A stretch of DNA of 64,000 bases from a virus: the IMG/VR virus record IMGVR_UViG_3300045988_074321, positions 1-64,000 of that record; one strand, 5' to 3'. Shown here one piece after another: positions 35,269 to 61,874 of the stretch. A program made the translations under genes and the position numbers. Under the pieces are notes generated by a model. That model searched no databases. It was not told the origin of the DNA and saw only the letters and a program-made list of their open reading frames with translations. Positions within the stretch are counted from its first letter, which is position 1; each line of letters begins with the position of its first letter.

Positions 35269-36285
35269 ATGAAGAAAATTTTTAGTATTATTTGTTTGTG
35301 TTTAATGTGCGTGTTTGCTAGCGCACAAGTTGTTGAAACTGGAAGTTTGAAAGATAACTGGTATGTTTCTGGTAATGTAGGTACTACAATTTGGGACAAC
35401 TCAAGAAGTTGGGCTGAACCTCGTGATGTATTAGTAAATATTGCGGTGGGTAAAGAAATTACTCCTATCTTTGGACTAGAGTTAGATATGATGGCAGGTA
35501 TGAATCAAGGCAGTGAAACGTTCTTCGATTCCCATAACCTTACAGCTAATGTAACTACTAATCTAACTAATCTTATTTGTGGATACGAAGGCTCTAGACG
35601 TTTATTTGAGCCTGTATTACTGATAGGTGCTGGTTGGTATCATACTTATGGTGATGTTTATAATAATGTATCTGCAAGAGGTGCAATTAGATGCAACTTT
35701 AATATTACTGATAGTTGGGCATTAAATGTTACTCCTGAGTATATGTTACTTCCCAAGACTTCTCCTCTGAATCATGAGTTTAACGTCTATATTGGTGCTA
35801 CCTATCGCTTTAAGTCTAGCAAGGGGGACTTTCCAATTATGAAGTTGTATAGTGATGCCGAGGTTGAAAGCCTAAACGCTTCTATTAATGAGTTGAGAGC
35901 CAAGAATGAGGAACTTATGGCTCGTAAACCAATAGAAATTGTTAAGACGGACACAATCGAAATTACTAAAGTAGAGCTTTTGACTCCAAAAATTCAATTC
36001 CTTCAAAATTCTTCAGAGATTTCTAAAACTTCCAATGTGGCTGTCTCAGAACTAGCTTCCTATATTTCTAATAGTGGAAAAACTTATGTGATTGAGGGAT
36101 ATGCTTCGGAAGAAGGTCCAGAAGAGTTTAATAATAACCTTGCTGTAGCTAGGGCAGAATCTATGAAGAAGGCTCTGATTAGCTATGGTGCTCCAGAGGA
36201 TAAATTGGTTGTTAAGGGATGTGGAATTACCACTGAATTTGGAGATAATGAATTTAATCGTATCGTAATAATTTCCGAACAATGA
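35269..36285 (+). CDS. OmpA-family protein (signal peptide, coiled coil, C-terminal OmpA/MotB peptidoglycan-binding domain)
   Basis: MKKIFSIICLCLMCVFASAQ signal; YVIEGYASEEGPEEFNNNLAVARAESMKKALISYG OmpA-like motif. Confidence 0.7.
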   Translation: MKKIFSIICLCLMCVFASAQVVETGSLKDNWYVSGNVGTTIWDNSRSWAEPRDVLVNIAVGKEITPIFGLELDMMAGMNQGSETFFDSHNLTANVTTNLTNLICGYEGSRRLFEPVLLIGAGWYHTYGDVYNNVSARGAIRCNFNITDSWALNVTPEYMLLPKTSPLNHEFNVYIGATYRFKSSKGDFPIMKLYSDAEVESLNASINELRAKNEELMARKPIEIVKTDTIEITKVELLTPKIQFLQNSSEISKTSNVAVSELASYISNSGKTYVIEGYASEEGPEEFNNNLAVARAESMKKALISYGAPEDKLVVKGCGITTEFGDNEFNRIVIISEQ

Positions 36286-36526
36286 AGTATAAGAAAAAAG
36301 TAGCTTGGTTAAAAGCAAAGCAAGCATAGTGGGATAAACAAGGAAAAGACTTTCAGGCTGCAACTACCAGACCTGGGTCTATTAAAACTCGATAAATCAT
36401 GATTGCGTTTATAATTGTGTGCATAATGTTTGCCGCGTATATTTATTATGACCCGTATGTAGATATTACAGAGGATAATGTACTACTATGGTATAATAAA
36501 AGCGGCAATAGAGAATATATTATTCT

Positions 36527-36739
36527 ATGGTCGAGAAAAACTTAATTAAGGCATTTGTTGCCGTTCTATTAATCGTTGTAATTTACAACATCAGCTTATG
36601 GTTATTATCCGAATCATTGTATGCTGCAAATATCTTGGGGTTGTTACTATTACTAGTGGCAATCCCAAGTTTAGTTTATAGGATATTCAAATATATTAAG
36701 AAACATTACTTAAATAAGGAAAATGAAGACAATTATTAA
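36527..36739 (+). CDS. small membrane protein
   Basis: ORF track; two TM helices. Confidence 0.45.
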   Translation: MVEKNLIKAFVAVLLIVVIYNISLWLLSESLYAANILGLLLLLVAIPSLVYRIFKYIKKHYLNKENEDNY

Positions 36740-37550
36740 GATTTTGTGCGTATTAACTTTAGTGTTTGGCTTATCTAGTTGTGGCTATGAGAGAATTGAT
36801 GCTGGTTATGAAGGCATCAAGGTAAATCTATACGGAGATGGTAAAGGAGTAGACGATGTGTCTCTTGTTACTGGTGCGGTATGGTACAATCCTGTTACTA
36901 CGGCTGTATATGAATATCCTACATTCGTACAGACTGTGGACTATCCTCCTTTCAGTATTAATGCTAAAGATGGATCATCATTTACTGTAGACCCTACAAT
37001 TTCTTTGAAGATTGTTGACGGGAAATCACCAGAAGTATTTAAGAAGTATAGAAAGGAAGATATTGTAGAGGTAATTAACACTACTTTGTATAATTACGTA
37101 AAGAATGCTTTTCGCATTCAGCTGAATAACTATACTACTGATGAACTAGTAAGTAAACGTGAGGAGTTTGAGAAGTCTATAGAAGATAGACTGTCAAAGG
37201 AACTCTTGGCTGAGAATTTTCAGCTTGAACAAATGACTTCTGGTCTTCAATATCCACAGACGCTAGTCAATTCTATTGATGCTAAGAATGCTGCAATTCA
37301 ACAGGCTTTGAAGGCAGAGAATGAAGTTAAGACTATTGAGGCAGAAGCTAAAAAGAAAGTAGCAGCTGCACAAGGAGAGGCAGAAGCTCTTAAGATTAAG
37401 GGTGATGCAGAAGCTGAATATAATAGAAAGATTTCAGCATCTTTGTCAGTTCTCATAGTTCAGCAGGATATGATTAAGAAGTGGGATGGAAAACTTCCTA
37501 CTTATGGTCAGGTTCCCACCTTATTTAAAGATGTAGCTAATAACAAATGA
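36723..37550 (+). CDS. SPFH/band-7 (prohibitin/HflC-like) lipoprotein
   Basis: lipobox LSSC; SPFH-like core; C-terminal EAEAKKKVAAAQGEAEALKIKGDAEAEYNRK. Confidence 0.6.
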   Translation: MKTIIKILCVLTLVFGLSSCGYERIDAGYEGIKVNLYGDGKGVDDVSLVTGAVWYNPVTTAVYEYPTFVQTVDYPPFSINAKDGSSFTVDPTISLKIVDGKSPEVFKKYRKEDIVEVINTTLYNYVKNAFRIQLNNYTTDELVSKREEFEKSIEDRLSKELLAENFQLEQMTSGLQYPQTLVNSIDAKNAAIQQALKAENEVKTIEAEAKKKVAAAQGEAEALKIKGDAEAEYNRKISASLSVLIVQQDMIKKWDGKLPTYGQVPTLFKDVANNK

Positions 37551-37894
37551 TGTATCTAGTAATATGCACTGTGATGGTAATCATCACGGTGCTTATCTTG
37601 AAAGATACCCATGTAACCGTTTATTACAATGGGTATAGCAGAAGTGTGGCACTTATAGAAGAAGACTATGACCTTAAAGTTCCAGTGTGGCTAGTTTTAG
37701 TAATACTAATCCTAGGATTTATCCCAGTACTGAACATTATGCTATACACAGTAGGATATTTATTCTATATAGTTCATGCTGTGTGGAATCCAGATAAGTT
37801 GTCTGGATATACACATAAGTTCAATCTAAGAGGAAATAATTTTCTAACTAGAATAGTGAAGAAGATATGGAAATTCTTAAATGTATGTGTATAA
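37547..37894 (+). CDS. membrane protein
   Basis: ORF track; 3 hydrophobic segments. Confidence 0.5.
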   Translation: MMYLVICTVMVIITVLILKDTHVTVYYNGYSRSVALIEEDYDLKVPVWLVLVILILGFIPVLNIMLYTVGYLFYIVHAVWNPDKLSGYTHKFNLRGNNFLTRIVKKIWKFLNVCV

Positions 37895-38391
37895 CACTGA
37901 AACATCTTAGGCGAATACTTAGACATAAGTTTTGGGTAGCTTATTACTGTTTTCAGTTAGGTTTATACAAACAGGGCATCTTGCACGACTTATCTAAATT
38001 CGGATGGTATGAGTTCTCTCGTTCTGTAAAATTTTACGATGATGACACATCTCCCTTAAACAAGGAAAAAGAAATTCTAGGATATTCTAGGTCTTATTTA
38101 CATCACAGAGGAAGAAATCCACACCATTATGAATACTGGGTAACTAAGCTAGACATTGGCGGTGTTCCAGTGAAGATGCCTAAAGAGTATGCTCTAGAAT
38201 TGGTATGCGATTATCTGGCTGCTGGTAAAGTATACAACGGTAATAGTTTTCAAGGAGAATATAACTGGTGGATTAAGTATATAAATTCTCCTAGGGCTAT
38301 CCATCCAGAAACGAAGGAATTTATCACTCAGTGTTTTAAGAATTTAGCTAGTGGTAAAGGCATGAAAAGTTTATTAACAATTAGTTATTAA
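37867..38391 (+). CDS. hypothetical protein
   Basis: ORF track. Confidence 0.45.
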   Translation: MEILKCMCITLKHLRRILRHKFWVAYYCFQLGLYKQGILHDLSKFGWYEFSRSVKFYDDDTSPLNKEKEILGYSRSYLHHRGRNPHHYEYWVTKLDIGGVPVKMPKEYALELVCDYLAAGKVYNGNSFQGEYNWWIKYINSPRAIHPETKEFITQCFKNLASGKGMKSLLTISY

Positions 38392-38404: not shown

Positions 38405-39955
38405 ATGGAAATAATTAATGCTACAGATGGTTACAAGTTGGGCCATCACAGAATGTACCCCGAAGGTACTGAACAAGTTTATAGTAACTGGACTCCTAGA
38501 AGTAATAAATACTTCCCAGAAGCAACCGAAGGTTCAGTAGTATTTGGTATTCAATACCTAATCAAAGAATATCTCATTAAACAGTTTGAGAAAAACTTCT
38601 TTAATCTACCAAAGAAGGAAGCTGTGGAGATGTTCTATCGTAGAGTAAACAACTTTGTTGGTATTGAATCCGTTGGGTACAGACATATTGAAGCTTTATA
38701 TGACCTTGGGTATCTACCAATTCGCATAAAGGCTCTTCCTGAAGGTTCTGTGTGCCCTATTCGGGTTCCCATGATGACCATTACAAATACTCTACCCGAG
38801 TTCTTTTGGTTAACTAACTACTTAGAGACTATTATCAGCTGTACCTTGTGGATGCCATGCACATCTGCTACTAGAGCTAGGCTTTATAAGAAAGAGCTAC
38901 ATCGTCATGCTTGCAAGACTGGTTTTCCAACAGATGTAAATCTTGGTTTTTGTTGTCATGATTTCTCAATGCGAGGTATGGCGGGAATGGAAGCCGCAAT
39001 TATATCTGGTATGGCGCATATGACTTCTTTTGTGGGAAGTGAAACTATTCCAGCTATTGCTGCTTTGGAAGAATATTATGGAGCTAATTCAGACGAGGAA
39101 TTGATTGCTGCTACAGTTCCAGCAACAGAACACTCTGTAATGTGTGCTGGAGGGGAGGAAGATGAGCTGGGCACTTTCAAACGTCTAATTAATGATTTGT
39201 ATCCTTCTGGGTTTGTTTCTATTGTATCTGATACTTGGGATTTCTGGAATGTAATTGAAAATTTCTTGCCCAAGCTGAAGAAAGACATTATGGCTCGTGA
39301 TGGTAGAGTAGTAATCCGTCCTGATAGTGGAGACCCAGTAGATATAATCTGCGGGTTGAGAACTAATCCTCACTTCAATACCAGAATGAAAGAAGGTAAG
39401 TATTATTGCTGCTATGCTCCGTTTAACGACGATGCAGAGTATGTTGAAGTGTCCGAAGGTCAATATTATGGGGCATATTATATGCTTGGTAAAATCTTCG
39501 GATGGAATACTACTTCAAAGGATTACCGTTATCCTAGCACTAAGGTTGGTCTGCTTTATGGAGATTCTATTACTCTGGAACGTCAAAAGCAAATCTACTT
39601 GAGATTAGAAAACGCTCATATGGCGGCTTGTAATCTCGTTCTGGGAGTAGGTTCATATTCCTATCAGTATGCAAGTAGAGATAGTCTTGGGTTTGCTATT
39701 AAGGCTACTGCTTGCGTAGTAAATGGCGAATTGAAAGAAATCTTCAAACATCCTAAAACTGATGATGGTACTAAGAACTCTTTGAAAGGTTTGATTGCTG
39801 TCTATAAATGTCTGGATGGGAAGTATACTGCTACCGACCAGGTCTCAATCGAGGAGGAAAAAGAGGGATGCTTAGAGACTGTCTTTGAAGATGGTATCTT
39901 GAAGAAAGAATATTCTCTTGAAGAAATCAGACAAAGAATTGACCATGGACTTTAA
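38405..39955 (+). CDS. nadV: nicotinamide phosphoribosyltransferase (NadV/NAMPT)
   Basis: 516 aa; N-term TDGYKLGHHRMYP, GF..HDFS.RG, GDSITLER typical of NAMPT. Confidence 0.85.
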   Translation: MEIINATDGYKLGHHRMYPEGTEQVYSNWTPRSNKYFPEATEGSVVFGIQYLIKEYLIKQFEKNFFNLPKKEAVEMFYRRVNNFVGIESVGYRHIEALYDLGYLPIRIKALPEGSVCPIRVPMMTITNTLPEFFWLTNYLETIISCTLWMPCTSATRARLYKKELHRHACKTGFPTDVNLGFCCHDFSMRGMAGMEAAIISGMAHMTSFVGSETIPAIAALEEYYGANSDEELIAATVPATEHSVMCAGGEEDELGTFKRLINDLYPSGFVSIVSDTWDFWNVIENFLPKLKKDIMARDGRVVIRPDSGDPVDIICGLRTNPHFNTRMKEGKYYCCYAPFNDDAEYVEVSEGQYYGAYYMLGKIFGWNTTSKDYRYPSTKVGLLYGDSITLERQKQIYLRLENAHMAACNLVLGVGSYSYQYASRDSLGFAIKATACVVNGELKEIFKHPKTDDGTKNSLKGLIAVYKCLDGKYTATDQVSIEEEKEGCLETVFEDGILKKEYSLEEIRQRIDHGL

Positions 39956-40382
39956 TCATCCTTTTGGGAAAGAAGCTTGCAAGAAACGACTATTAGAAGA
40001 GTATCATAAATACGGAAAGCTAATAGTCGCTTTCGATTTTGATAATACTATTTTCGATTACCATAATACTGGCGGAGATTATAGTTGCGTTATAGAACTA
40101 CTTAAAGAATGCTCACTTCTAGGTTTTGAAATGATTTTATTCACCACTGATGAAGATGATTATAAAATTATGGCAAAGCAGACAATTTGTATGCGATTAG
40201 GAATAGCAAATATTACTTCTAATACTTTATCTGCTCCAAACATTAGTAGTTCTATATTCTCTAAATCTAAGAAACCTTATTACAATATCCTCCTAGATGA
40301 TAGGGCAGGTCTGGAAGAAAGTTATGAAATCTTAAAATATGTAGTAGATGAAATTAAACTTAATCAACAAGGAAATCAGTGA
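39918..40382 (+). CDS. HAD-superfamily hydrolase (phosphatase)
   Basis: DFDNT (DxDxT) motif near N-terminus. Confidence 0.5.
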   Translation: MKKSDKELTMDFNHPFGKEACKKRLLEEYHKYGKLIVAFDFDNTIFDYHNTGGDYSCVIELLKECSLLGFEMILFTTDEDDYKIMAKQTICMRLGIANITSNTLSAPNISSSIFSKSKKPYYNILLDDRAGLEESYEILKYVVDEIKLNQQGNQ

Positions 40383-41157
40383 AATTAAGTACGATGTTAC
40401 TAGATTTCCTGATGGAGAGCCTCAGTTTTTCCTTACTGAGGAATTAAACAGAAAGGAATCTATTGATGTCATTTGTAGAATATCTAATACTGAGGATTTA
40501 TTCCTCTTAGTGCAAGTAGGAGATATTTTAGATAGACAAGAAGTAGAATGGGATTTACACATTACTTATTTAATGTCTATGCGTATGGATAGAGTAATGA
40601 GTTTTAATCGTCCATTCTCCTTGAAAGTAGTATGTAATATGTTAAATAGCTTAGGCTATAGAAACATATATGTTCTTGAGGCACATTCTAGTAGAACTTT
40701 TCATCTTCTTGGTGACAGATGTTTACCTTGGGAATTTGGACACCACTCTTGGATTCCAGCCCAAAGTAATATCGTGTTCCCAGACCATGGGGCGAAGGAC
40801 AGATATGGAAGTAACTATTCTCACTATGGTTATTTAGTCTTCAAAAAGGAAAGAAATCTAGAGACTGGAAGAATTGAGTCCTTTGAAATAGAGGAGTCTA
40901 AGAATTGCTACTATTCTACATTTGTGTTCATTGATGACTTGTGTGATGCCGGAGGAACTTTCCTAGGAGAGCTTAAGGTTCTCAAAGAGAGATATCCAAA
41001 TAGCAAGTTTATCATAATCGTATGTCACGCAGTTAATGATAAAGGTCTGATTAATATGTGTAATAATTTTGACCAGGTTATTGTATCTAATTCTCATAGG
41101 GATATTAATTATCGTCCCAGCAACGAGAACTTAACTGTAATAGACGTTTGTAAATAA
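40348..41157 (+). CDS. ribose-phosphate pyrophosphokinase (Prs)-like PRTase-fold protein
   Basis: PRPP-binding loop FIDDLCDAGGT; size/N-terminal region Prs-like. Confidence 0.6.
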   Translation: MKLNLINKEISEIKYDVTRFPDGEPQFFLTEELNRKESIDVICRISNTEDLFLLVQVGDILDRQEVEWDLHITYLMSMRMDRVMSFNRPFSLKVVCNMLNSLGYRNIYVLEAHSSRTFHLLGDRCLPWEFGHHSWIPAQSNIVFPDHGAKDRYGSNYSHYGYLVFKKERNLETGRIESFEIEESKNCYYSTFVFIDDLCDAGGTFLGELKVLKERYPNSKFIIIVCHAVNDKGLINMCNNFDQVIVSNSHRDINYRPSNENLTVIDVCK

Positions 41158-56186: not shown

Positions 56187-58355
56187 ATGCAAGTAGTAAA
56201 GAGAGACGGAAGTTTACAGGAATTTGACGGTAATAAGATAGTAGAAGCAATATCTAAAGCATTTAATGCTTGCTGTCCTGAAGAAAATAAAGAAGTCATT
56301 ACAGCTATGGTGGCTGATATGCATTTATGGGACGGCATTACTATAGAAGAGATTCAAGACGTAGTAATAGAAACCTTGAGGGACTATGGTTACGACGATG
56401 TAGCCTCAGCATATTCTCAGTATAGAAGTGAACAATCTAGACTTAGAGAAATCATAGCTAAGATTAGTTACCAAGATAACTATATTAATAGTTCCGAAAA
56501 TGCAGCTACTTCATCTGAAACAGATGGAAATGCTAATGTTGTATCTAAGAACGTTGCTACATTAGAGAGTGAAGATAGAAAGCGCGAGAACAGAGAAATT
56601 CAGCGCTATCGTATGAAGAAGAAATTAAAGCTTCTTTATCCCGAACTCTCTTCTCAATATTCTAAAGACCTAGACAGTCATATTATTTATACCCACGATG
56701 AGGCTTCTACGTCAGTACTTAAACAGTATTGTATGGCAGTCTCGTTATACCCCCTAATGTTAGAGGGAGTAGGTAATATTGATGGAGTTACTCCTGGCCC
56801 TCCTAATGATTTGCAGTCATTCAGTGGACAAGTTACTAACTTAGTATTTCTATTGTCCTCTCAATGTAAAGGAGCAGTTGCTGTAGGTAGCTATTTTATT
56901 GCACTTAACTATTATATTATTGCTGAATACGGAGAAAAGTGGTATGAGAAGCTCGATTGTATATGTACTTCGGAACATTCTCTTATTAAGAGAACTATCG
57001 AAGACTCCATCCTTAAAGCTTTTAAACAGTTTGTTTGGGGAATTAATCAACCTGCTGGAAACAGAAGTTATCAATCTCCCTTTACTAATGTTTCGTACTA
57101 CGATAAGACCTATTTTGAATCTCTATTTGGAGAATTTTACTATCCAGACGGAACTAAGCCAGAATGGGTAGCAATTGATACTTTACAGAGATTGTTCATG
57201 TCTTGGTTTAATAAACTTCGCTTGAAACAAGTTCTGACATTTCCAGTAGAAACCTTTGCTATGGTGCATGACGGTAAAGACATTATAGATAAGAACTATA
57301 AAGACTTATGTGCAGAAATGTATTCTCAAGGTCATAGTTTCTTTACCTATATCTCAGACAGTGCAGATAGTCTTGCATCTTGTTGTCGTCTTCGTAATGA
57401 ATTAGCTGAAAATACATTTAGTCCTACCTCTGGTATGACTGGTGTAAAGACAGGTTCTTGTAATGTTATTACTCTGAATATTAACAGAATTGTCCAAGAT
57501 TGGGCTAGACAAGAAACTACTTGGTGGAGTGAAGATGGAGACAAAAATCTCTTGCATTGTAAAGATAATGTTGCCCTACTCAAAAAATATCTAATAGATA
57601 TTCTAGAGAGAGTATACAAGTATCACATTACCTATAAGACCATGCTCTATGAGTGGGAGGATAAGAAGATGTTTGCTTCTTCAAATGGAGGTTATATAAA
57701 CATCAAAGACCTATATAGTACTATTGGGCTAAATGGTCTGAATGAAGCTGCTGAGTTCTTAGGAATGAAGGTATCTAATAATCCAGAATATTTTGAGTTT
57801 TTACAGCTCATACTTGGAACAATAAAAGAGCAGAATAAACTTCATTCTATCCATGACAAAAAGCGCCCCTTCTTATTTAATTCTGAAGTCGTTCCAGCAG
57901 AGGGACTTGGTGGTAAGAATTATAAATGGGATAAAGCAGATGGCTATTGGGTTCCTGAAGATAGGAATCTATACAATAGTTACTTCTATAATGCCCATGA
58001 TGATACATCAGTGTTGGATAAGTTTATACTTCATGGAAGGCAGACTTATCAGTATACAGATGGAGGTAGTGCAGCTCACATTAACTTGGAGGAACATCTG
58101 TCTAAGGAGCAATACTTGAAGCTTATAGACTTTGCTATTCAGCAAGGAACTAATTACTTCACGTTCAATATTCCTAATAGTAAGTGCGAGGATTGTAAAC
58201 ATATTGTGAAAGCTCCCATTAAGGTATGTCCTAAATGTGGAAGTGAACATATTACTCAATATACCAGAATTATTGGCTATCTAAGACCTATCACTGCTTT
58301 TGGTAAGGATAGAAGAATAGAAGCTGAAAGAAGAACATATTCAAAAAATGTATAA
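56187..58355 (+). CDS. nrdD: anaerobic ribonucleoside-triphosphate reductase
   Basis: 722 aa; N-terminal ATP-cone, C-terminal zinc ribbon CEDCKH...CPKCGSEH and glycyl-radical motif RIIGYLRP. Confidence 0.85.
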   Translation: MQVVKRDGSLQEFDGNKIVEAISKAFNACCPEENKEVITAMVADMHLWDGITIEEIQDVVIETLRDYGYDDVASAYSQYRSEQSRLREIIAKISYQDNYINSSENAATSSETDGNANVVSKNVATLESEDRKRENREIQRYRMKKKLKLLYPELSSQYSKDLDSHIIYTHDEASTSVLKQYCMAVSLYPLMLEGVGNIDGVTPGPPNDLQSFSGQVTNLVFLLSSQCKGAVAVGSYFIALNYYIIAEYGEKWYEKLDCICTSEHSLIKRTIEDSILKAFKQFVWGINQPAGNRSYQSPFTNVSYYDKTYFESLFGEFYYPDGTKPEWVAIDTLQRLFMSWFNKLRLKQVLTFPVETFAMVHDGKDIIDKNYKDLCAEMYSQGHSFFTYISDSADSLASCCRLRNELAENTFSPTSGMTGVKTGSCNVITLNINRIVQDWARQETTWWSEDGDKNLLHCKDNVALLKKYLIDILERVYKYHITYKTMLYEWEDKKMFASSNGGYINIKDLYSTIGLNGLNEAAEFLGMKVSNNPEYFEFLQLILGTIKEQNKLHSIHDKKRPFLFNSEVVPAEGLGGKNYKWDKADGYWVPEDRNLYNSYFYNAHDDTSVLDKFILHGRQTYQYTDGGSAAHINLEEHLSKEQYLKLIDFAIQQGTNYFTFNIPNSKCEDCKHIVKAPIKVCPKCGSEHITQYTRIIGYLRPITAFGKDRRIEAERRTYSKNV

Positions 58356-58692
58356 AATAGAAGAGTTTGTAGGAACAGCTGCTGAGCTGGAGAAGTTCCT
58401 TAATGAAATGCAAGTTATTAAACATTTTAATCTATCTCATATAGTATCTAGACAAGCTAAAACTTTTGCAGGACCTGGATGCTCAGTTGATAGAACCGTT
58501 TATACCTTAGTATTTTATGGGAATGACGAAGAAAAGAAGAGACAAATATATCTTGAATATGCTAAAGAAAACTTATGTAAAGATTGCTTGACTTGTGCAG
58601 ACTTCGGGTATTATTGTAGAGGAAATAAAGAAAGATGTAATGCGTGGAAATACGATGAAAAAGCACATTATAGAATTGATAAAGTTGTATGA
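58348..58692 (+). CDS. Cys-rich hypothetical protein
   Basis: ORF track. Confidence 0.45.
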   Translation: MYKIEEFVGTAAELEKFLNEMQVIKHFNLSHIVSRQAKTFAGPGCSVDRTVYTLVFYGNDEEKKRQIYLEYAKENLCKDCLTCADFGYYCRGNKERCNAWKYDEKAHYRIDKVV

Positions 58693-59354
58693 GTAAAGTT
58701 TTAATTATTCCAGATGTTCACGGTAGACCATTCTGGAGAAAAGCAAAAGAGAAGATTAATAGTGTGGATAAGGTAGTCTTTTTAGGGGACTACCTCGACC
58801 CATATGGTTATGAAGGTATTACTAGAGAGAATGCGATAGAGGAGTTTAAAGAGATTATCCAATTCAAAGTTGATAATCCCGATAAGGTAATACTACTCCT
58901 TGGAAATCACGACTGTGCTTATTGCTATGATTTCGGAAGTGCTTCTAGGTATGATTACGCTAATGCAGAGCTAATTAAGGAAATGTTTGAGAATTTCAAG
59001 TCTCTATTCCAACTCAAATACTTCTCGGAAGGTATTCTATATACTCATGCTGGAGTTACTAATGATTGGTTAAAGAGTATGGATTTTACTATTACTGACC
59101 TAATTACTAAGCCTGAGGACTCTCTAGTTGGCTTCCTATGGGAAGTATCTCGTATGAGAGGAGGGTGGTCTAATACAGGCAGTATGGTATGGAGCGATGT
59201 CAGAGAAGGAGATAGAGAGTCTACATATTATCAAATATTTGGGCATACTCAATTGGAATCAGAACCCATTATTACTGACAAGTTTGCTTGCTTAGACGTA
59301 AGAAGACCTTTTATATTAGATACAGAAACTAAAAAGATTGAGGAGTATGCTTAA
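58689..59354 (+). CDS. calcineurin-like metallophosphoesterase
   Basis: PDVHG, FLGDYLD, LGNHD motifs. Confidence 0.7.
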   Translation: MSKVLIIPDVHGRPFWRKAKEKINSVDKVVFLGDYLDPYGYEGITRENAIEEFKEIIQFKVDNPDKVILLLGNHDCAYCYDFGSASRYDYANAELIKEMFENFKSLFQLKYFSEGILYTHAGVTNDWLKSMDFTITDLITKPEDSLVGFLWEVSRMRGGWSNTGSMVWSDVREGDRESTYYQIFGHTQLESEPIITDKFACLDVRRPFILDTETKKIEEYA

Positions 59355-59841
59355 ATATGTTGATGCCAGAGTAGTCTTTCAGGAAATTCCGGATGAGATT
59401 ACATTAGCTATAAATATATCTAACTGTCCTTGTCATTGTAAAGGATGTCATAGTCAATACCTAGCCGAAGATATAGGTAAACCATTAATTGAATATCCGC
59501 AGGGGTTCTCTGATGATTACATTATTCATCTAGACGAACTAATTACAGATGGTATTTCGTGTATAGCATTTATGGGAGGGGATTCTGACCCTCACTTAGT
59601 AAATGTGTTAGCTAGTTTTGTTAAAGATTATTATCCGAATTTAAAAGTGGCATGGTACTCAGGTAGACAAGAACTATCAGAGCACGTGAATATGAAGCAT
59701 TTCGATTATATCAAGCTAGGTCCATATATTGAAGAAAACGGGCCTTTAAATAGTAAGACAACTAATCAAGTTATGCTTCATATAGATAATAGCTGTGGAA
59801 AACCCATAGTTAAAGACATAACATCACGTTTTTGGAAATGA
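59338..59841 (+). CDS. nrdG: anaerobic ribonucleotide reductase activating protein
   Basis: CPCHCKGCH radical-SAM-type cluster; adjacent to nrdD. Confidence 0.8.
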   Translation: MRSMLKYVDARVVFQEIPDEITLAINISNCPCHCKGCHSQYLAEDIGKPLIEYPQGFSDDYIIHLDELITDGISCIAFMGGDSDPHLVNVLASFVKDYYPNLKVAWYSGRQELSEHVNMKHFDYIKLGPYIEENGPLNSKTTNQVMLHIDNSCGKPIVKDITSRFWK

Positions 59842-60137
59842 TTCTTAAGGTTGCATATGATGATAACAGTCAACATCTGGTTGACGAATTAAAAAAGGTT
59901 CTTTCTAAATATCCTTTAGTAGAATTACAAACTTACCATGAAGGCTTGTTTAAGGAACGTAAAAACGCCTTCAAGCTTAAGGGAGGTTTTAGCGCTAGAC
60001 ATACTCCATTTGCTGTATTAATTGATAATGATGCAGCTCCAGTAATGGCATTCTACGGTGAAGCTAATACTTGTACCATAGAAGAGATAATGAAAGCATT
60101 AAATAATCCTGTAGTGTATGGTAGAATTGAAGGTTAA
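59832..60137 (+). CDS. hypothetical protein
   Basis: ORF track. Confidence 0.45.
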   Translation: MEMILKVAYDDNSQHLVDELKKVLSKYPLVELQTYHEGLFKERKNAFKLKGGFSARHTPFAVLIDNDAAPVMAFYGEANTCTIEEIMKALNNPVVYGRIEG

Positions 60138-60459
60138 AGATATTATTGAAAGGAAGAAACTTCTGATAAAAGGACTTGAAGAGAATATCTTCAAGGACTT
60201 TACTGAAGAAGAAGAAAATCTCTTGCACTCCAAGCACGGAATGATTAAAGTTAGTCATAGGTCAGGCGCTGGTAAAGTGTACGAAGGGATAACTGGAGCG
60301 TTTAAGGTTGGGCTTCCTCTAATTATTGATAGTGAGCCGACTAAGATAATACAGAGAATTACCATGATAGATTGGGACTCTAGTATGTTCCAGGATGCAG
60401 ATGGAGAGTGGTTTATATTTGAATTTACTCCAATAAGACTCTACGAATTAAGTGTATGA
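60118..60459 (+). CDS. hypothetical protein
   Basis: ORF track. Confidence 0.45.
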   Translation: MVELKVKDIIERKKLLIKGLEENIFKDFTEEEENLLHSKHGMIKVSHRSGAGKVYEGITGAFKVGLPLIIDSEPTKIIQRITMIDWDSSMFQDADGEWFIFEFTPIRLYELSV

Positions 60460-60761
60460 TAAGAAAATTTACTAACATCGTTTGTGTATATTACAACGAC
60501 AAAAATTATATTCCAGCTAAGTATAATTGTCCAGACTTAGAGATTGATGATGTAATTCTCAACCTGACTACAAACAAGGAACAGAATTATGAAAAGATTT
60601 CTGAGATTATTGTTGATTATGCCTTTGCTTTGTTTTGTAATAAATCTGATTTAAAGGATTTTGCACAAGACCATAAGAAGTATAAGAGGCAGAACTGGAA
60701 ATTGCTCGACTTTAGGGAAATAATTAAAACAACAGAGATAAAACCAAAAGATCAGAAATGA
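60456..60761 (+). CDS. hypothetical protein
   Basis: ORF track. Confidence 0.45.
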   Translation: MIRKFTNIVCVYYNDKNYIPAKYNCPDLEIDDVILNLTTNKEQNYEKISEIIVDYAFALFCNKSDLKDFAQDHKKYKRQNWKLLDFREIIKTTEIKPKDQK

Positions 60762-61312
60762 AATATGGAGTTATTTTAGCTAGGTTTCAGCCCATTCACA
60801 ATGGGCACCTAGCTTTAATTAAAAAAGCTTGTTCAGAGAACGATAAGGTTCTTTTGTTAGTTGGTAGTGCTGATAAAGTAAACAAGCGTAATCCTATTCC
60901 TATAAAGGTTAGGATAAAATTACTAGAAACTGCCTTAGAGGACGAAGGTTTACTTAGTAGATGTATCATTCAGCCTCTTAATGATTTGACTGATGAGTCT
61001 GATAACTCTCAGGATTGGGGATTCTATTTATATGCTAACATAGTTAGTATTATAAAAGAGTCCCATTTTAATATCTACTATAGCGATGGATACGAAATTA
61101 TTACAACATGGTTTCCAAAGTTTATGCTGAAGGGTTATATATCAATGACTCTCATGGCAAGAGAACAGGTAGAAGAAGGTATATCGGCTACTGTTGTAAG
61201 AGATGCCCTAAGATCTAATTTAAGCCTAGAAGGACTAGTTCCTAAGTGTGTTATAGATGCAAGATTTTATTTAACTGAATTTATTTTATTACATGAAAGT
61301 ACTCATAATTAA
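60758..61312 (+). CDS. nicotinamide/nicotinate mononucleotide adenylyltransferase (NMNAT, NadM/NadR-type nucleotidyltransferase)
   Basis: [14 protein letters not shown] (HxGH) motif. Confidence 0.6.
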
Positions 61313-61874
61313 TAAATCAAGACATCAACTTCCTCAGTATGAAACTCCCTTATCAGCAGGTATGGATATTAGAGGAGACTTTAGTAGAATTAAGTTAGTA
61401 GACAATAAGCCTGAGAAATTCTTTTTCGATGCTGATGTTGTAGCTATTAGTAAAATTGAAGATCCAAATGGTCCATTTGTGGTAGACAAGGAAGGAAATC
61501 TTACTGATAGAAGAGTTCCTAGTATTCCCGTTGCTTCTACTATTGAAATAAAGCCCGGAGGTAGATGTTTGATTCCGACTGGATTGTTTATAGCTTTACC
61601 TAAGGGTTACGAGGCGCAAGTTCGACCACGAAGCGGTCTTGCATTAAAATTGGGACTTACTGTCCTTAATTCACCTGGAACCATTGACGCCGACTACAGA
61701 GGAGAGATTGGAGTTGTATTAGTGAACACTTCTAATGTCCCAGTTAGAATTACTGATGGAGAAAGAATTGCCCAAATAGTTATTGCTAAGCATGAAACTA
61801 TAGAATGGGAAGTTGTTGAAGAATTACCTTCCACTGAACGAGGAGAAGGGGGATTTGGACATACCGGAGTATGA
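61293..61874 (+). CDS. dut: dUTP diphosphatase
   Basis: [29 protein letters not shown] motifs. Confidence 0.85.

Follow-up and report, generated by a model that had tools for sequence, protein, structure and literature searches.

A predicted NARP1 operon with a candidate accessory phosphatase of the HAD superfamily in an uncultured gut phage

How does a phage with three overlapping genes for nicotinamide adenine dinucleotide (NAD+) metabolism rebuild NAD+, and what does the small phosphatase-like protein encoded between the other two contribute? The question is raised by a 64,000-nucleotide (nt) stretch of viral DNA, positions 1 to 64,000 of the IMG/VR record IMGVR_UViG_3300045988_074321 (hereafter, the window). 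An earlier note on this DNA described a salvage cluster of NadV (the nicotinamide phosphoribosyltransferase NAMPT), a haloacid dehalogenase (HAD)-superfamily phosphatase and a Prs-like protein, together with a nicotinamide mononucleotide (NMN) adenylyltransferase, NMNAT. All four open reading frames (ORFs) are present at the positions that it gave, on the plus strand, and are listed here with the assignments predicted in this work and their main basis:

38405..39955, plus strand: Namat (nicotinamide ADP-ribose transferase, NAMPT family), 516 amino acids (aa); PF04095 and PF18127, PHROG 448, structure matches
39945..40382, plus strand: NARP1-associated capless HAD-superfamily phosphatase, 145 aa; four motifs, linkage to Adps and Namat
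40348..41157, plus strand: Adps (ADP-ribose pyrophosphate synthetase, PRPS-like), 269 aa; PHROG 619, donor loop, active-site residues
60758..61312, plus strand: stand-alone NadM/archaeal-type NMNAT without a Nudix domain, 184 aa; PF01467, PDB matches, motifs

As judged from the encoded sequences, we assign the unit Namat–HAD phosphatase–Adps with high confidence as a NARP1 operon. In NARP1, ADP-ribose (ADPR) and ATP are converted to ADPR pyrophosphate (ADPR-PP) and AMP, and ADPR-PP and nicotinamide then yield NAD+ and pyrophosphate (PPi) (Osterman et al. 2024, bioRxiv 10.1101/2024.02.11.579819). The wider explanation that we favor, and hold to be fairly probable as a whole, is a NARP1 operon equipped with a dedicated HAD phosphatase that feeds it and complemented by a distant NMNAT.

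The two enzymes of the putative NARP1 operon

The first protein matches PF04095/PF18127 and PHROG 448 (E 1e-182), and its best solved-structure matches are 9W5X and 9W5W (488 bits, E 2e-145), compared with 227 bits for mammalian NAMPT and 198 bits for the Xanthomonas Nampt in the same search. Both structures show the Namat of the Bacillus phage SpbetaL1, an enzyme that acts in NARP1 as ADPR-PP:nicotinamide transferase (PMC12774641). The same work describes the clamp that sets Namat apart from Nampt, which consists of two helix aromatics, F392 and Y396, stacking on adenine, and of the loop residue R40, or the next residue if that position is Lys or Tyr (PMC12774641). The corresponding elements of the window proteins, along with the donor loop of Adps discussed below, are as follows:

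38492..38521, plus strand: selectivity-clamp loop (SCL) of Namat, TPRSNKYFPE, with K35-Y36
39644..39682, plus strand: selectivity-clamp helix (SCH) of Namat, GVGSYSYQYASRD, aa 414-426, with Y418 and Y422
40930..40968, plus strand: donor (PP) loop of Adps, IDDLCDAGGTFLG, containing DDLCDAGGTF, of the Adps type DD[IL]CD.GGTF

At the SCH, the window sequence GVGSYSYQYASRD places Y418 and Y422 against F392 and Y396 of SpbetaL1 (GIGSFTYQYNTRD), whereas the Xanthomonas Nampt reads GMGGALLQKVDRD at this site, with A and K in place of the two aromatics. In the SCL, K35 is aligned with SpbetaL1 R40, and the residue that follows it is Y36. The catalytic core is kept as well, including D8, Y10, H243 (in ATEHS) and R305 and D307 (in VVIRPDSGDP), and both ATEHS and the IRPDSGDP segment, which holds the R306 and D308 equivalents, are identical to those of SpbetaL1 Namat. 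Because of the difference between 488 and 227 bits and the Namat-type clamp residues, the gene labeled NadV is better assigned as Namat, the paralog of NAMPT predicted to use ADPR-PP. The NAMPT label is thus replaced, and with it the idea of NAMPT–NMNAT salvage from phosphoribosyl pyrophosphate (PRPP) gives way to a core chemistry of ADPR plus nicotinamide. Compared with SpbetaL1 Namat, the window protein carries an extra segment of ~38 aa (aa 318-355, window 39356-39469, LRTNPHFNTRMKEGKYYCCYAPFNDDAEYVEVSEGQYY), which falls between two blocks that can be aligned to the SpbetaL1 crystal structure.

The third protein matches PHROG 619, the phage 'ribose-phosphate pyrophosphokinase' family, with 176 bits (E 2e-51), and reaches only 58.3 bits on TIGR01251, the curated Prs model with a cut-off of 113; all equivalog models lie far below threshold, and the best solved Prs gives 34 bits at most. 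A scan for Pribosyltran_N (PF13793) found no match in this protein, while a true Prs from Mucilaginibacter, taken as a control, scored 69.6 bits. By tblastn, relatives were found in 1477 phage records, including ICP1, from which the published Adps structures derive, and DyoEdafos and felixO1-like phages, in which NARP1 has been characterized. The nearest named relative is a DAC15 protein (40.6% identity), listed with a Namat neighbor in the Prs/Adps table of the original NARP1 paper, and 97% of the genes in the published Adps clade adjoin Namat. The acceptor and donor residues of ICP1 Adps comprise R87, H121, D161, K185, D212, D213, the PP loop C215-S220 and F221 (PMC13586617). Nine positions of the ICP1 enzyme (R87, H121, D161, K185, D212, D213, C215, D216 and F221) correspond to R79, H113, D146, K167, D196, D197, C199, D200 and F205 in the window protein, and ICP1 F92 corresponds to M84, at a position that is also variable among other Adps. 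Its donor loop, DDLCDAGGTF, may be compared with DDICDGAASF of ICP1, DDICDGGGTF of DyoEdafos and DDICDGGRTF of wV8 on one side and with DDMIDTGGTL of E. coli Prs on the other. Since the protein falls below the Prs cut-off, lacks Pribosyltran_N, carries an Adps-type PP loop and the catalytic Lys, and has Adps among its relatives, we interpret it as Adps and not as a supplier of PRPP. The earlier note had offered both options for the Prs-like protein; the ADPR-pyrophosphate synthetase is upheld by the loop, residues and relatives, while the supply of PRPP fails on 58 versus 113 bits and the missing Pribosyltran_N, and the catalytic residues on which the note had made its call depend are in place at the nine ICP1 equivalents.

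The adps and namat genes share a strand, and all that stands between them is the HAD gene of 438 nt, whose ends overlap the two. As the overlaps amount to 11 nt (Namat/HAD) and 35 nt (HAD/Adps), the three genes are best regarded as one co-translated unit. The middle ORF is also open from a TTG at 39918 (39918..40382, 154 aa), and database homologs and the annotation of cr126_1 make the ATG at 39945 (145 aa) the most likely true start. The same three-gene synteny is found in cr126_1, cr111_1 and DAC15/17 and in each of the 27 close IMG/VR relatives, which argues that the arrangement did not arise by chance. In the IMG/VR relatives L012, L025, L028, L060, L067 and L075 (L numbers are our locus handles), Namat, HAD or Adps is split into two frames on contigs that are otherwise near-identical, reflecting either frameshifts from assembly errors or pseudogenization.

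The earlier proposal that the cluster restores NAD+ and belongs to the anti-defense type of module is thus borne out by the NARP1 assignment. In the cycle that we propose, a host NADase defense (TIR, SIR2, SEFIR and similar) would cleave NAD+ into ADPR and nicotinamide, Adps would move the beta-gamma pyrophosphate of ATP onto the 1'' hydroxyl of ADPR to give ADPR-PP, and Namat would couple ADPR-PP with nicotinamide to regenerate NAD+ with release of PPi. With the NARP1 systems of Bacillus phage SpbetaL1, E. coli phage Bas63, ICP1 and DAC15/DAC17 (structures: PMC12774641, PMC13586617), the window shares the adjacency of the two enzyme families on one strand, the Namat clamp residues and catalytic core, and the Adps donor loop and catalytic Lys. 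It differs from them in having Namat first, a HAD gene inserted between the two and overlapping both, and a separate NMNAT in the same genome, and from SpbetaL1 in the additional ~38 aa of Namat (aa 318-355).

The HAD-superfamily protein and its genomic linkage

Homologs of the HAD protein were gathered by tblastn, which returned 82 phage records (crAss-like phages, Lak megaphages, Bacillus Bastillevirinae, Phass-1, one Vibrio and one Aeromonas phage), or ~5% of the NARP1-bearing phage records (82/1477), by a profile-guided scan of IMG/VR (78 loci), and by a scan of GTDB with one genome per species of bacteria and archaea (79 loci). Clustering of the HADs at 80% identity yielded a non-redundant set of 81 representatives.

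The window protein contains the four HAD motifs, namely motif I DFDNT (D31, D33, T35), motif II T67, motif III K110 and motif IV D118-D119, which are conserved in 78-79 of the 81 non-redundant members. Structure comparison revealed a capless, Rossmann-like core with a fold matching HAD phosphatases. Given intact motifs in nearly all members and this fold, we consider the protein a competent phosphatase, in keeping with its earlier description as a HAD enzyme, and very likely an active phosphomonoesterase with an Asp nucleophile that is dedicated to NARP1. Neither Pfam (even at E <= 10) nor a PDB sequence search gave a usable match. A weak match to PHROG 1238 carries the label 'phosphoheptose isomerase', and sequence and structure comparison gave neither an isomerase fold nor a SIS-domain signal. 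The closest structural relative is BT_0820 of Bacteroides thetaiotaomicron (PDB 2OBB), from which the window protein differs in not belonging to the NCBIfam family NF046079 ('BT0820 family HAD-type phosphatase'; 20.4 bits against a cut-off of 165). A literature search for NARP1 together with haloacid dehalogenase found only an unrelated paper on Metis. Outside the four motifs, R15, D38, H40, Y112, N114 and R120 (window ~39987-40304) are nearly invariant among the 81 members; these residues, which include two arginines and one histidine, could bind an anionic (diphosphate-bearing) substrate.

The linkage of this family to NARP1 is extensive. Both Namat and Adps were found within 5 kb in 72 of the 78 IMG/VR loci (the remainder having Adps only in two cases, a contig end that cuts the locus in three, and neither partner in one) and in 61 of the 79 GTDB loci, the linked ones coming from Flavobacteriia, Saprospiraceae, Paenibacillus, Cohnella and others. 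In the non-redundant set, all three genes share one strand in 66/81 loci, and the HAD gene sits exactly between the other two in 54/81, as Adps-HAD-Namat in 32 and as Namat-HAD-Adps in 22. The linkage is kept across at least five gene orders, spanning the crAss-like group, Lak megaphages, Bacillus Herelleviridae, Phass-1, Flavobacteriia, Saprospiraceae and Paenibacillaceae; in BPS10C, for example, the order is Adps-Namat-HAD. Nearly all HAD-linked NAMPT-family genes have the Namat clamp motif G[IV]GS[FY][ST]YQ[YF]xxRD, and most HAD-linked PRPS-like genes have the Adps loop. Because the linkage outlasts both taxonomic distance and gene reshuffling, a function shared by the HAD protein and NARP1 is indicated. 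In Bacteroidota and Bacillota, the bacterial HAD clusters are flanked by an NrtR-type regulator (NUDIX + NrtR_WHD) at 33 loci (e.g. L185, 3411-4103), and an ADP-ribosylglycohydrolase flanks seven bacterial HAD loci (e.g. L139, 4856-5815). Bacterial NrtR-regulated clusters (nadV-prs-nadM) and chromosomal NARP1 thus have in common with the window that the same HAD family occurs in NrtR-flanked Adps-HAD-Namat arrangements of Flavobacteriia, Saprospiraceae and Paenibacillaceae; they are, however, chromosomal and accompanied by a regulator, whereas the window copy is phage-borne and has none.

Several loci depart from the common layouts. Phass-1 (L034, code-15 clade, 1881-6319) has a five-gene NAD block, nicotinamidase-Adps-Namat-HAD-NAD synthase (NadE), that joins NARP1 with enzymes of the Preiss-Handler type. 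Prevotella phage Lak-B2 (L035) carries the HAD gene directly 5' of Adps (5998-6453 and 6489-7358), with no Namat within 6 kb on either side of the pair; in Lak megaphages, Namat-like matches lie roughly 200 kb from the HAD gene in genomes of 540-550 kb. At L140, L156, L163, L171 and L181, a third type of NAMPT-family gene, with the clamp GVGGILRNxSRD that follows neither the Namat nor the Nampt pattern, is linked to HAD and Adps-like genes, and two of these Adps-like genes have the unusual loop DDIGEGC.SF.

A comparison of close relatives further revealed a variable stretch inside the HAD gene:

40080..40300, plus strand: variable cassette, ~aa 46-119 of the HAD protein, from after motif I through motif III

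Between the window and the IMG/VR relative L016, DNA identity is 52-61% in the cassette and 97-100% in the flanking Namat and Adps DNA, and the encoded proteins are 99.8% (Namat), 68% (HAD) and 99.3% (Adps) identical. The catalytic motifs in and around the cassette are unchanged between the two. With Adps identity to the window falling to 73% in L010 and 42% in L021, the three genes are mosaic among close relatives of the window phage. One reading of the cassette swap is the exchange of a substrate- or partner-facing module.

The separate NMNAT and the genomic setting

The 184-aa protein matches PF01467, which has the cytidylyltransferase fold, and its best solved match is the M. jannaschii NMNAT 1f9a (E 1e-9, residues 4-167/184). 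Fourteen of its 16 PDB matches are NMNAT, nicotinic acid mononucleotide (NaMN) adenylyltransferase (NaMNAT) or NadR, and the other two, both marginal, are phosphopantetheine adenylyltransferase (PPAT). The NMNAT nucleotide-binding motifs appear as RFQPIHNGH and ISATVVR, and a Trp is aligned with the Trp of archaeal NMNAT that stacks on nicotinamide. Its phage homologs are found in Bacteroides phage BS-TP1 (53% identity) and then among the NadM-type NMNAT/Nudix proteins of KVP40-like phages; a Pfam scan detected no Nudix domain in the window protein. At family level, this is probably a divergent NadM/archaeal-type NMNAT with NMN or NaMN as substrate. The NMNAT call of the earlier note is accordingly plausible. 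The gene does not belong to the operon; it lies ~20 kb away within a nucleotide-metabolism block (56187-61874, plus strand). Other products of this block are a dUTPase, the anaerobic ribonucleotide reductase NrdD, which carries an ATP-cone, an NrdG-like protein with a CxxxCxxC motif and a calcineurin-like metallophosphoesterase (58689-59354); the Metallophos family also adjoins NARP1-HAD operons in three other phage loci. In Vibrio phage nt-1, the neighborhood of the NMNAT gene contains no NadV next to it.

NMNAT and the NARP1-HAD operon occur together on at least 40 IMG/VR contigs. NARP1 plus NMNAT in one phage is an unusual mix, since NARP1 and NARP2 did not occur together in any phage of the NARP paper. 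The combination of a NadM-type NMNAT with an enzyme of the NAMPT family in one phage genome recalls NARP2 of Vibrio phage KVP40 (Nampt plus a bifunctional NMNAT/Nudix protein); in the window, however, the NAMPT-family enzyme is of the Namat type and paired with Adps, and the NMNAT is without Nudix and 20 kb away. The NMNAT would provide a second route, from NMN and ATP to NAD+, with NMN stemming from residual PRPP-dependent activity of Namat or from defenses that cut NAD+ to NMN and AMP. Namat and NMNAT together could therefore amount to an ADPR-independent bypass or to re-ligation of the NMN left by Metis-type cleavage, the bypass being conceivable because SpbetaL1 Namat keeps about half of the PRPP activity of human NAMPT in vitro (PMC12774641).

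Regarding the source of the DNA, the operon region is 99.8% identical to the human-fecal phage fragment MT836666, and the three-gene block of the crAss-like cr126_1, cr111_1 and DAC15/17 has ~66-70% DNA identity to that of the window. Outside the NARP1 region, crAss-like DNA matches are short and weak and fall on primase genes, and a firm assignment to Crassvirales was dropped for this reason. We infer an uncultured human-gut phage that measures about 95-106 kb, has a distant affinity to crAss-like phages and would infect Bacteroidales. Upstream of the operon, a DUF5662 protein (PF18907, E 1e-28; 37867-38391, plus strand) with the HD-like motifs LHDLSK and HHRGRNPHH ends 14 nt 5' of Namat; it was discarded as an operon member because it is syntenic in close relatives only and not in distant NARP1-HAD loci. 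Two further products of the DNA just 5' of the operon (35269-37550, plus strand) are an SPFH/band-7 lipoprotein and an OmpA-like beta-barrel protein of the outer membrane (PF13505 + PF00691). A scan of 35-43.8 kb for sigma-70 promoters and terminators gave fewer promoter-like sites than shuffled sequence, this consensus being uninformative for a Bacteroidales-type phage.

Candidate substrates of the HAD phosphatase and their implications

Two accessory enzymes that occupy the slot between Adps and Namat in other phages offer a precedent for the role of the HAD protein. Adpp, the Macro phosphatase of Vibrio phage Gary, converts ADPR-1''-phosphate, the product of the RES-domain defense aRES, to ADPR and thereby restores NARP1 (bioRxiv 10.64898/2026.01.28.702374). 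RyDEP, a glycosidase of DyoEdafos, converts cyclic ADPR signals to ADPR (bioRxiv 10.64898/2026.05.28.727677). As both make ADPR from modified ADPR in the same slot, we propose a feeder role for the HAD phosphatase as well, in which it would dephosphorylate a form of ADPR not accepted by Adps and so deliver plain ADPR. By this analogy, conversion of phosphorylated ADPR to ADPR has, at best, an even chance of being its function; ADPR-1''-phosphate from RES-domain NAD+ phosphorylases such as aRES would be the likeliest substrate, and 2'-phospho-ADPR from NADP+ an alternative. The window operon resembles NARP1-AP of phage Gary (Adps-Adpp-Namat) in its three genes, in the phosphatase that fills the Adps-Namat slot, and in its predicted logic, the dephosphorylation of a modified ADPR for use by Adps, while the phosphatases themselves are non-homologous, a HAD fold with an Asp nucleophile in one case and a Macro domain in the other. 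Likewise, the RyDEP-containing operon of DyoEdafos has its accessory enzyme between Adps and Namat and a product, linear ADPR, that feeds NARP1, although RyDEP is a glycosidase acting on cyclic ADPR immune signals and neither a phosphatase nor a HAD fold.

Further observations are consistent with a feeder role. The position of bacterial HAD copies beside NrtR, an ADPR-sensing regulator fold, and beside ADP-ribosylglycohydrolase genes was counted in its favor, and the active site of capless HAD enzymes suits bulky substrates. No Macro gene was found among the six-frame ORFs of the window, either by profile or by a jackhmmer search seeded with Gary Adpp, and an Adpp-like Macro gene occurs at one of ~190 HAD loci, compared with a Macro gene in 15% of phage NARP1 operons (bioRxiv 10.64898/2026.01.28.702374), two populations that are not strictly comparable. 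The published list of Macro-NARP1 operons has no Bacillus-phage or Bacteroides entries, and the published aRES list includes Bacteroides thetaiotaomicron. The one locus with both phosphatases (L186, a contig of a metagenome-assembled genome) encodes Macro at 3121-3696, Adps at 3678-4505 and a HAD cut by the contig end at 4917-5198, and strict mutual exclusion of the two families was consequently abandoned.

A number of points weigh against the account given here. Every enzymatic step in the window phage is assigned from homology. For Namat, PDB 9KE8 has an intermediate score (387 bits) and Q/R at the clamp positions, and on the Nampt side our comparison covered the mammalian and Xanthomonas enzymes, to the exclusion of the KVP40 clade of phages. 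The top NCBIfam matches of the 184-aa protein are all NMNAT families, and none reaches its cut-off (NF002243, 57 versus 127 bits; TIGR01527, 47.6 versus 181). To our knowledge, no HAD enzyme acts on ADPR-1''-phosphate, and a literature search found neither function nor substrate for BT_0820, the closest structural relative. The co-occurrence at L186 suggests that the Macro and HAD phosphatases are not fully redundant. The HAD gene stands alone at ~9 of the 81 non-redundant loci, with such copies in Planctomycetes and Acetivibrio, for example, and nothing recurrent in the neighborhoods of these and the other stand-alone copies. Finally, at four Mucilaginibacter loci (L144, L145, L146, L159), the HAD gene adjoins a canonical NadV-Prs-NadM(Nudix) cluster, lying directly 3' of NadM(NMNAT+Nudix)-NadV (with the GMGGALLQKVDRD motif)-Prs (e.g. 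L145, 1544-5339). This family thus also occurs outside the Adps/Namat version of the cycle, and its substrate may be common to NARP1 and canonical recycling instead of specific to NARP1. In the canonical cluster, too, ADPR and nicotinamide are recycled, by way of Nudix, Prs, NadV and NadM, and an ADPR-producing phosphatase would still fit there, as would a pyrophosphatase or an NADP phosphatase.

The first of these two alternatives belongs to a wider proposal, that the HAD protein pulls or tidies the pathway by hydrolyzing the PPi released by Namat/NadV or by dephosphorylating breakdown products of labile 1-pyrophosphoryl intermediates (ADPR or ribose phosphates from ADPR-cyclic-phosphate (ADPR-cP) or PRPP). 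The substrate would then be common to NARP1 and the canonical NadV-Prs context, and ADPR-cP, derived from ADPR-PP, does appear among the methods headings of the NARP1 paper. Inorganic pyrophosphatase, however, is already abundant in cells, and a cyclic phosphate could not be salvaged without a phosphodiesterase as well, a type of gene that does not recur in the HAD loci. A HAD-family inorganic pyrophosphatase, BT2127, exists in Bacteroides, but it is a capped (C1) HAD, whereas the window protein is capless with an open site that suits bulky substrates; we regard such a role as unlikely. A 2'-phosphatase for NADP(H), turning the NADP pool into NAD upon NAD+ depletion, would agree with an NAD-restoring operon, with a capless HAD able to accept dinucleotides, and with both the NARP1 and canonical contexts. 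Yet the NADP pool is small relative to NAD, which limits the gain, and the Adps-Namat slot parallels enzymes that make ADPR, making this role distinctly unlikely.

The earlier note had also raised the possibility of an NMN nucleotidase. Some enzymes of the HAD/DDDD superfamily do have this activity, including the class C acid phosphatase e(P4) of H. influenzae and yeast Isn1/Sdt1, and IMP nucleotidases of the ISN1 type were present among the non-significant Foldseek matches. A 5'-nucleotidase for NMN/NaMN, or a general one, that tunes pyridine-nucleotide pools or makes nicotinamide riboside fits poorly, however, with a family that is almost always linked to a pathway of which NMN is no intermediate, Adps and Namat being present in 66/81 non-redundant loci. 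It would also oppose the phage's own NMNAT, and many other HAD phosphatases match the protein structurally at least as well as nucleotidases do, which leaves this function quite improbable.

For the operon as a whole, classical or NARP2-like salvage would have NadV (NAMPT) make NMN from nicotinamide and PRPP, the Prs-like protein supply PRPP, and NMNAT finish NAD+. Membership of the first protein in the NAMPT family, an NMNAT in the same genome, the retained PRPP activity of SpbetaL1 Namat in vitro (about half that of human NAMPT; PMC12774641), and the Mucilaginibacter loci with NadV-Prs-NadM beside the same HAD family would all agree with it. We nevertheless consider it very improbable, as clamp residues and bit scores group the enzyme with Namat, the Prs-like protein is below the Prs cut-off, without a Pribosyltran_N signal and with an Adps donor loop, the NMNAT is outside the operon and without a Nudix domain, and the published NARP2 Nampts form a separate clade, in phages without Adps. 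That the HAD gene is a passenger (moron) unrelated to NAD, such as a nucleic-acid 3'-phosphatase or, as the PHROG 1238 label would imply, a player in heptose-phosphate metabolism, is barely credible despite stand-alone members in Planctomycetes and elsewhere, given its overlap with both neighbors, the lack of an isomerase fold or SIS-domain signal in either comparison, and its linkage to Adps/Namat across unrelated phages, bacterial phyla and changing gene orders.

Returning to the feeder role, we put forward tentatively, at somewhat less than an even chance, that the HAD phosphatase represents a third independently evolved class of NARP1 feeder after Adpp and RyDEP, by which phages and many Bacteroidota and Bacillota may rebuild NAD+ from phosphorylated ADPR, the substrate being ADPR-1''-phosphate or the product of a still-unrecognized NAD(P)-degrading defense. 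NARP1 itself is known and has been cataloged in crAss-like phages before; what is new is a widespread HAD accessory phosphatase in the Adpp/RyDEP slot, the variable cassette within its gene, and a stand-alone NMNAT that is stably paired with NARP1. For these phages, the labels 'NadV', 'Prs' and 'phosphoheptose isomerase' given in routine annotation are corrected to Namat, Adps and HAD phosphatase.

Few strategies against phages are as common in bacteria as the depletion of NAD+, and the principal countermeasure known from phages is NARP1. Its weakness is the need for unmodified ADPR, which defenses such as aRES exploit; in some phages, a Macro phosphatase is the reply. That another phosphatase family, unrelated to the Macro one, takes the same slot in abundant human-gut phages, Lak megaphages, Bacillus phages and many chromosomal NARP1 clusters points to convergent counter-counter-defense or to an unrecognized modified-ADPR product and its defense system. 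If the HAD phosphatase does act as a feeder, its swapped cassette would reflect an arms race over the substrate or a host inhibitor and, with the NMNAT, the four genes would cover the canonical, phosphorolytic and pyrophosphatase-type modes of NAD+ cleavage.

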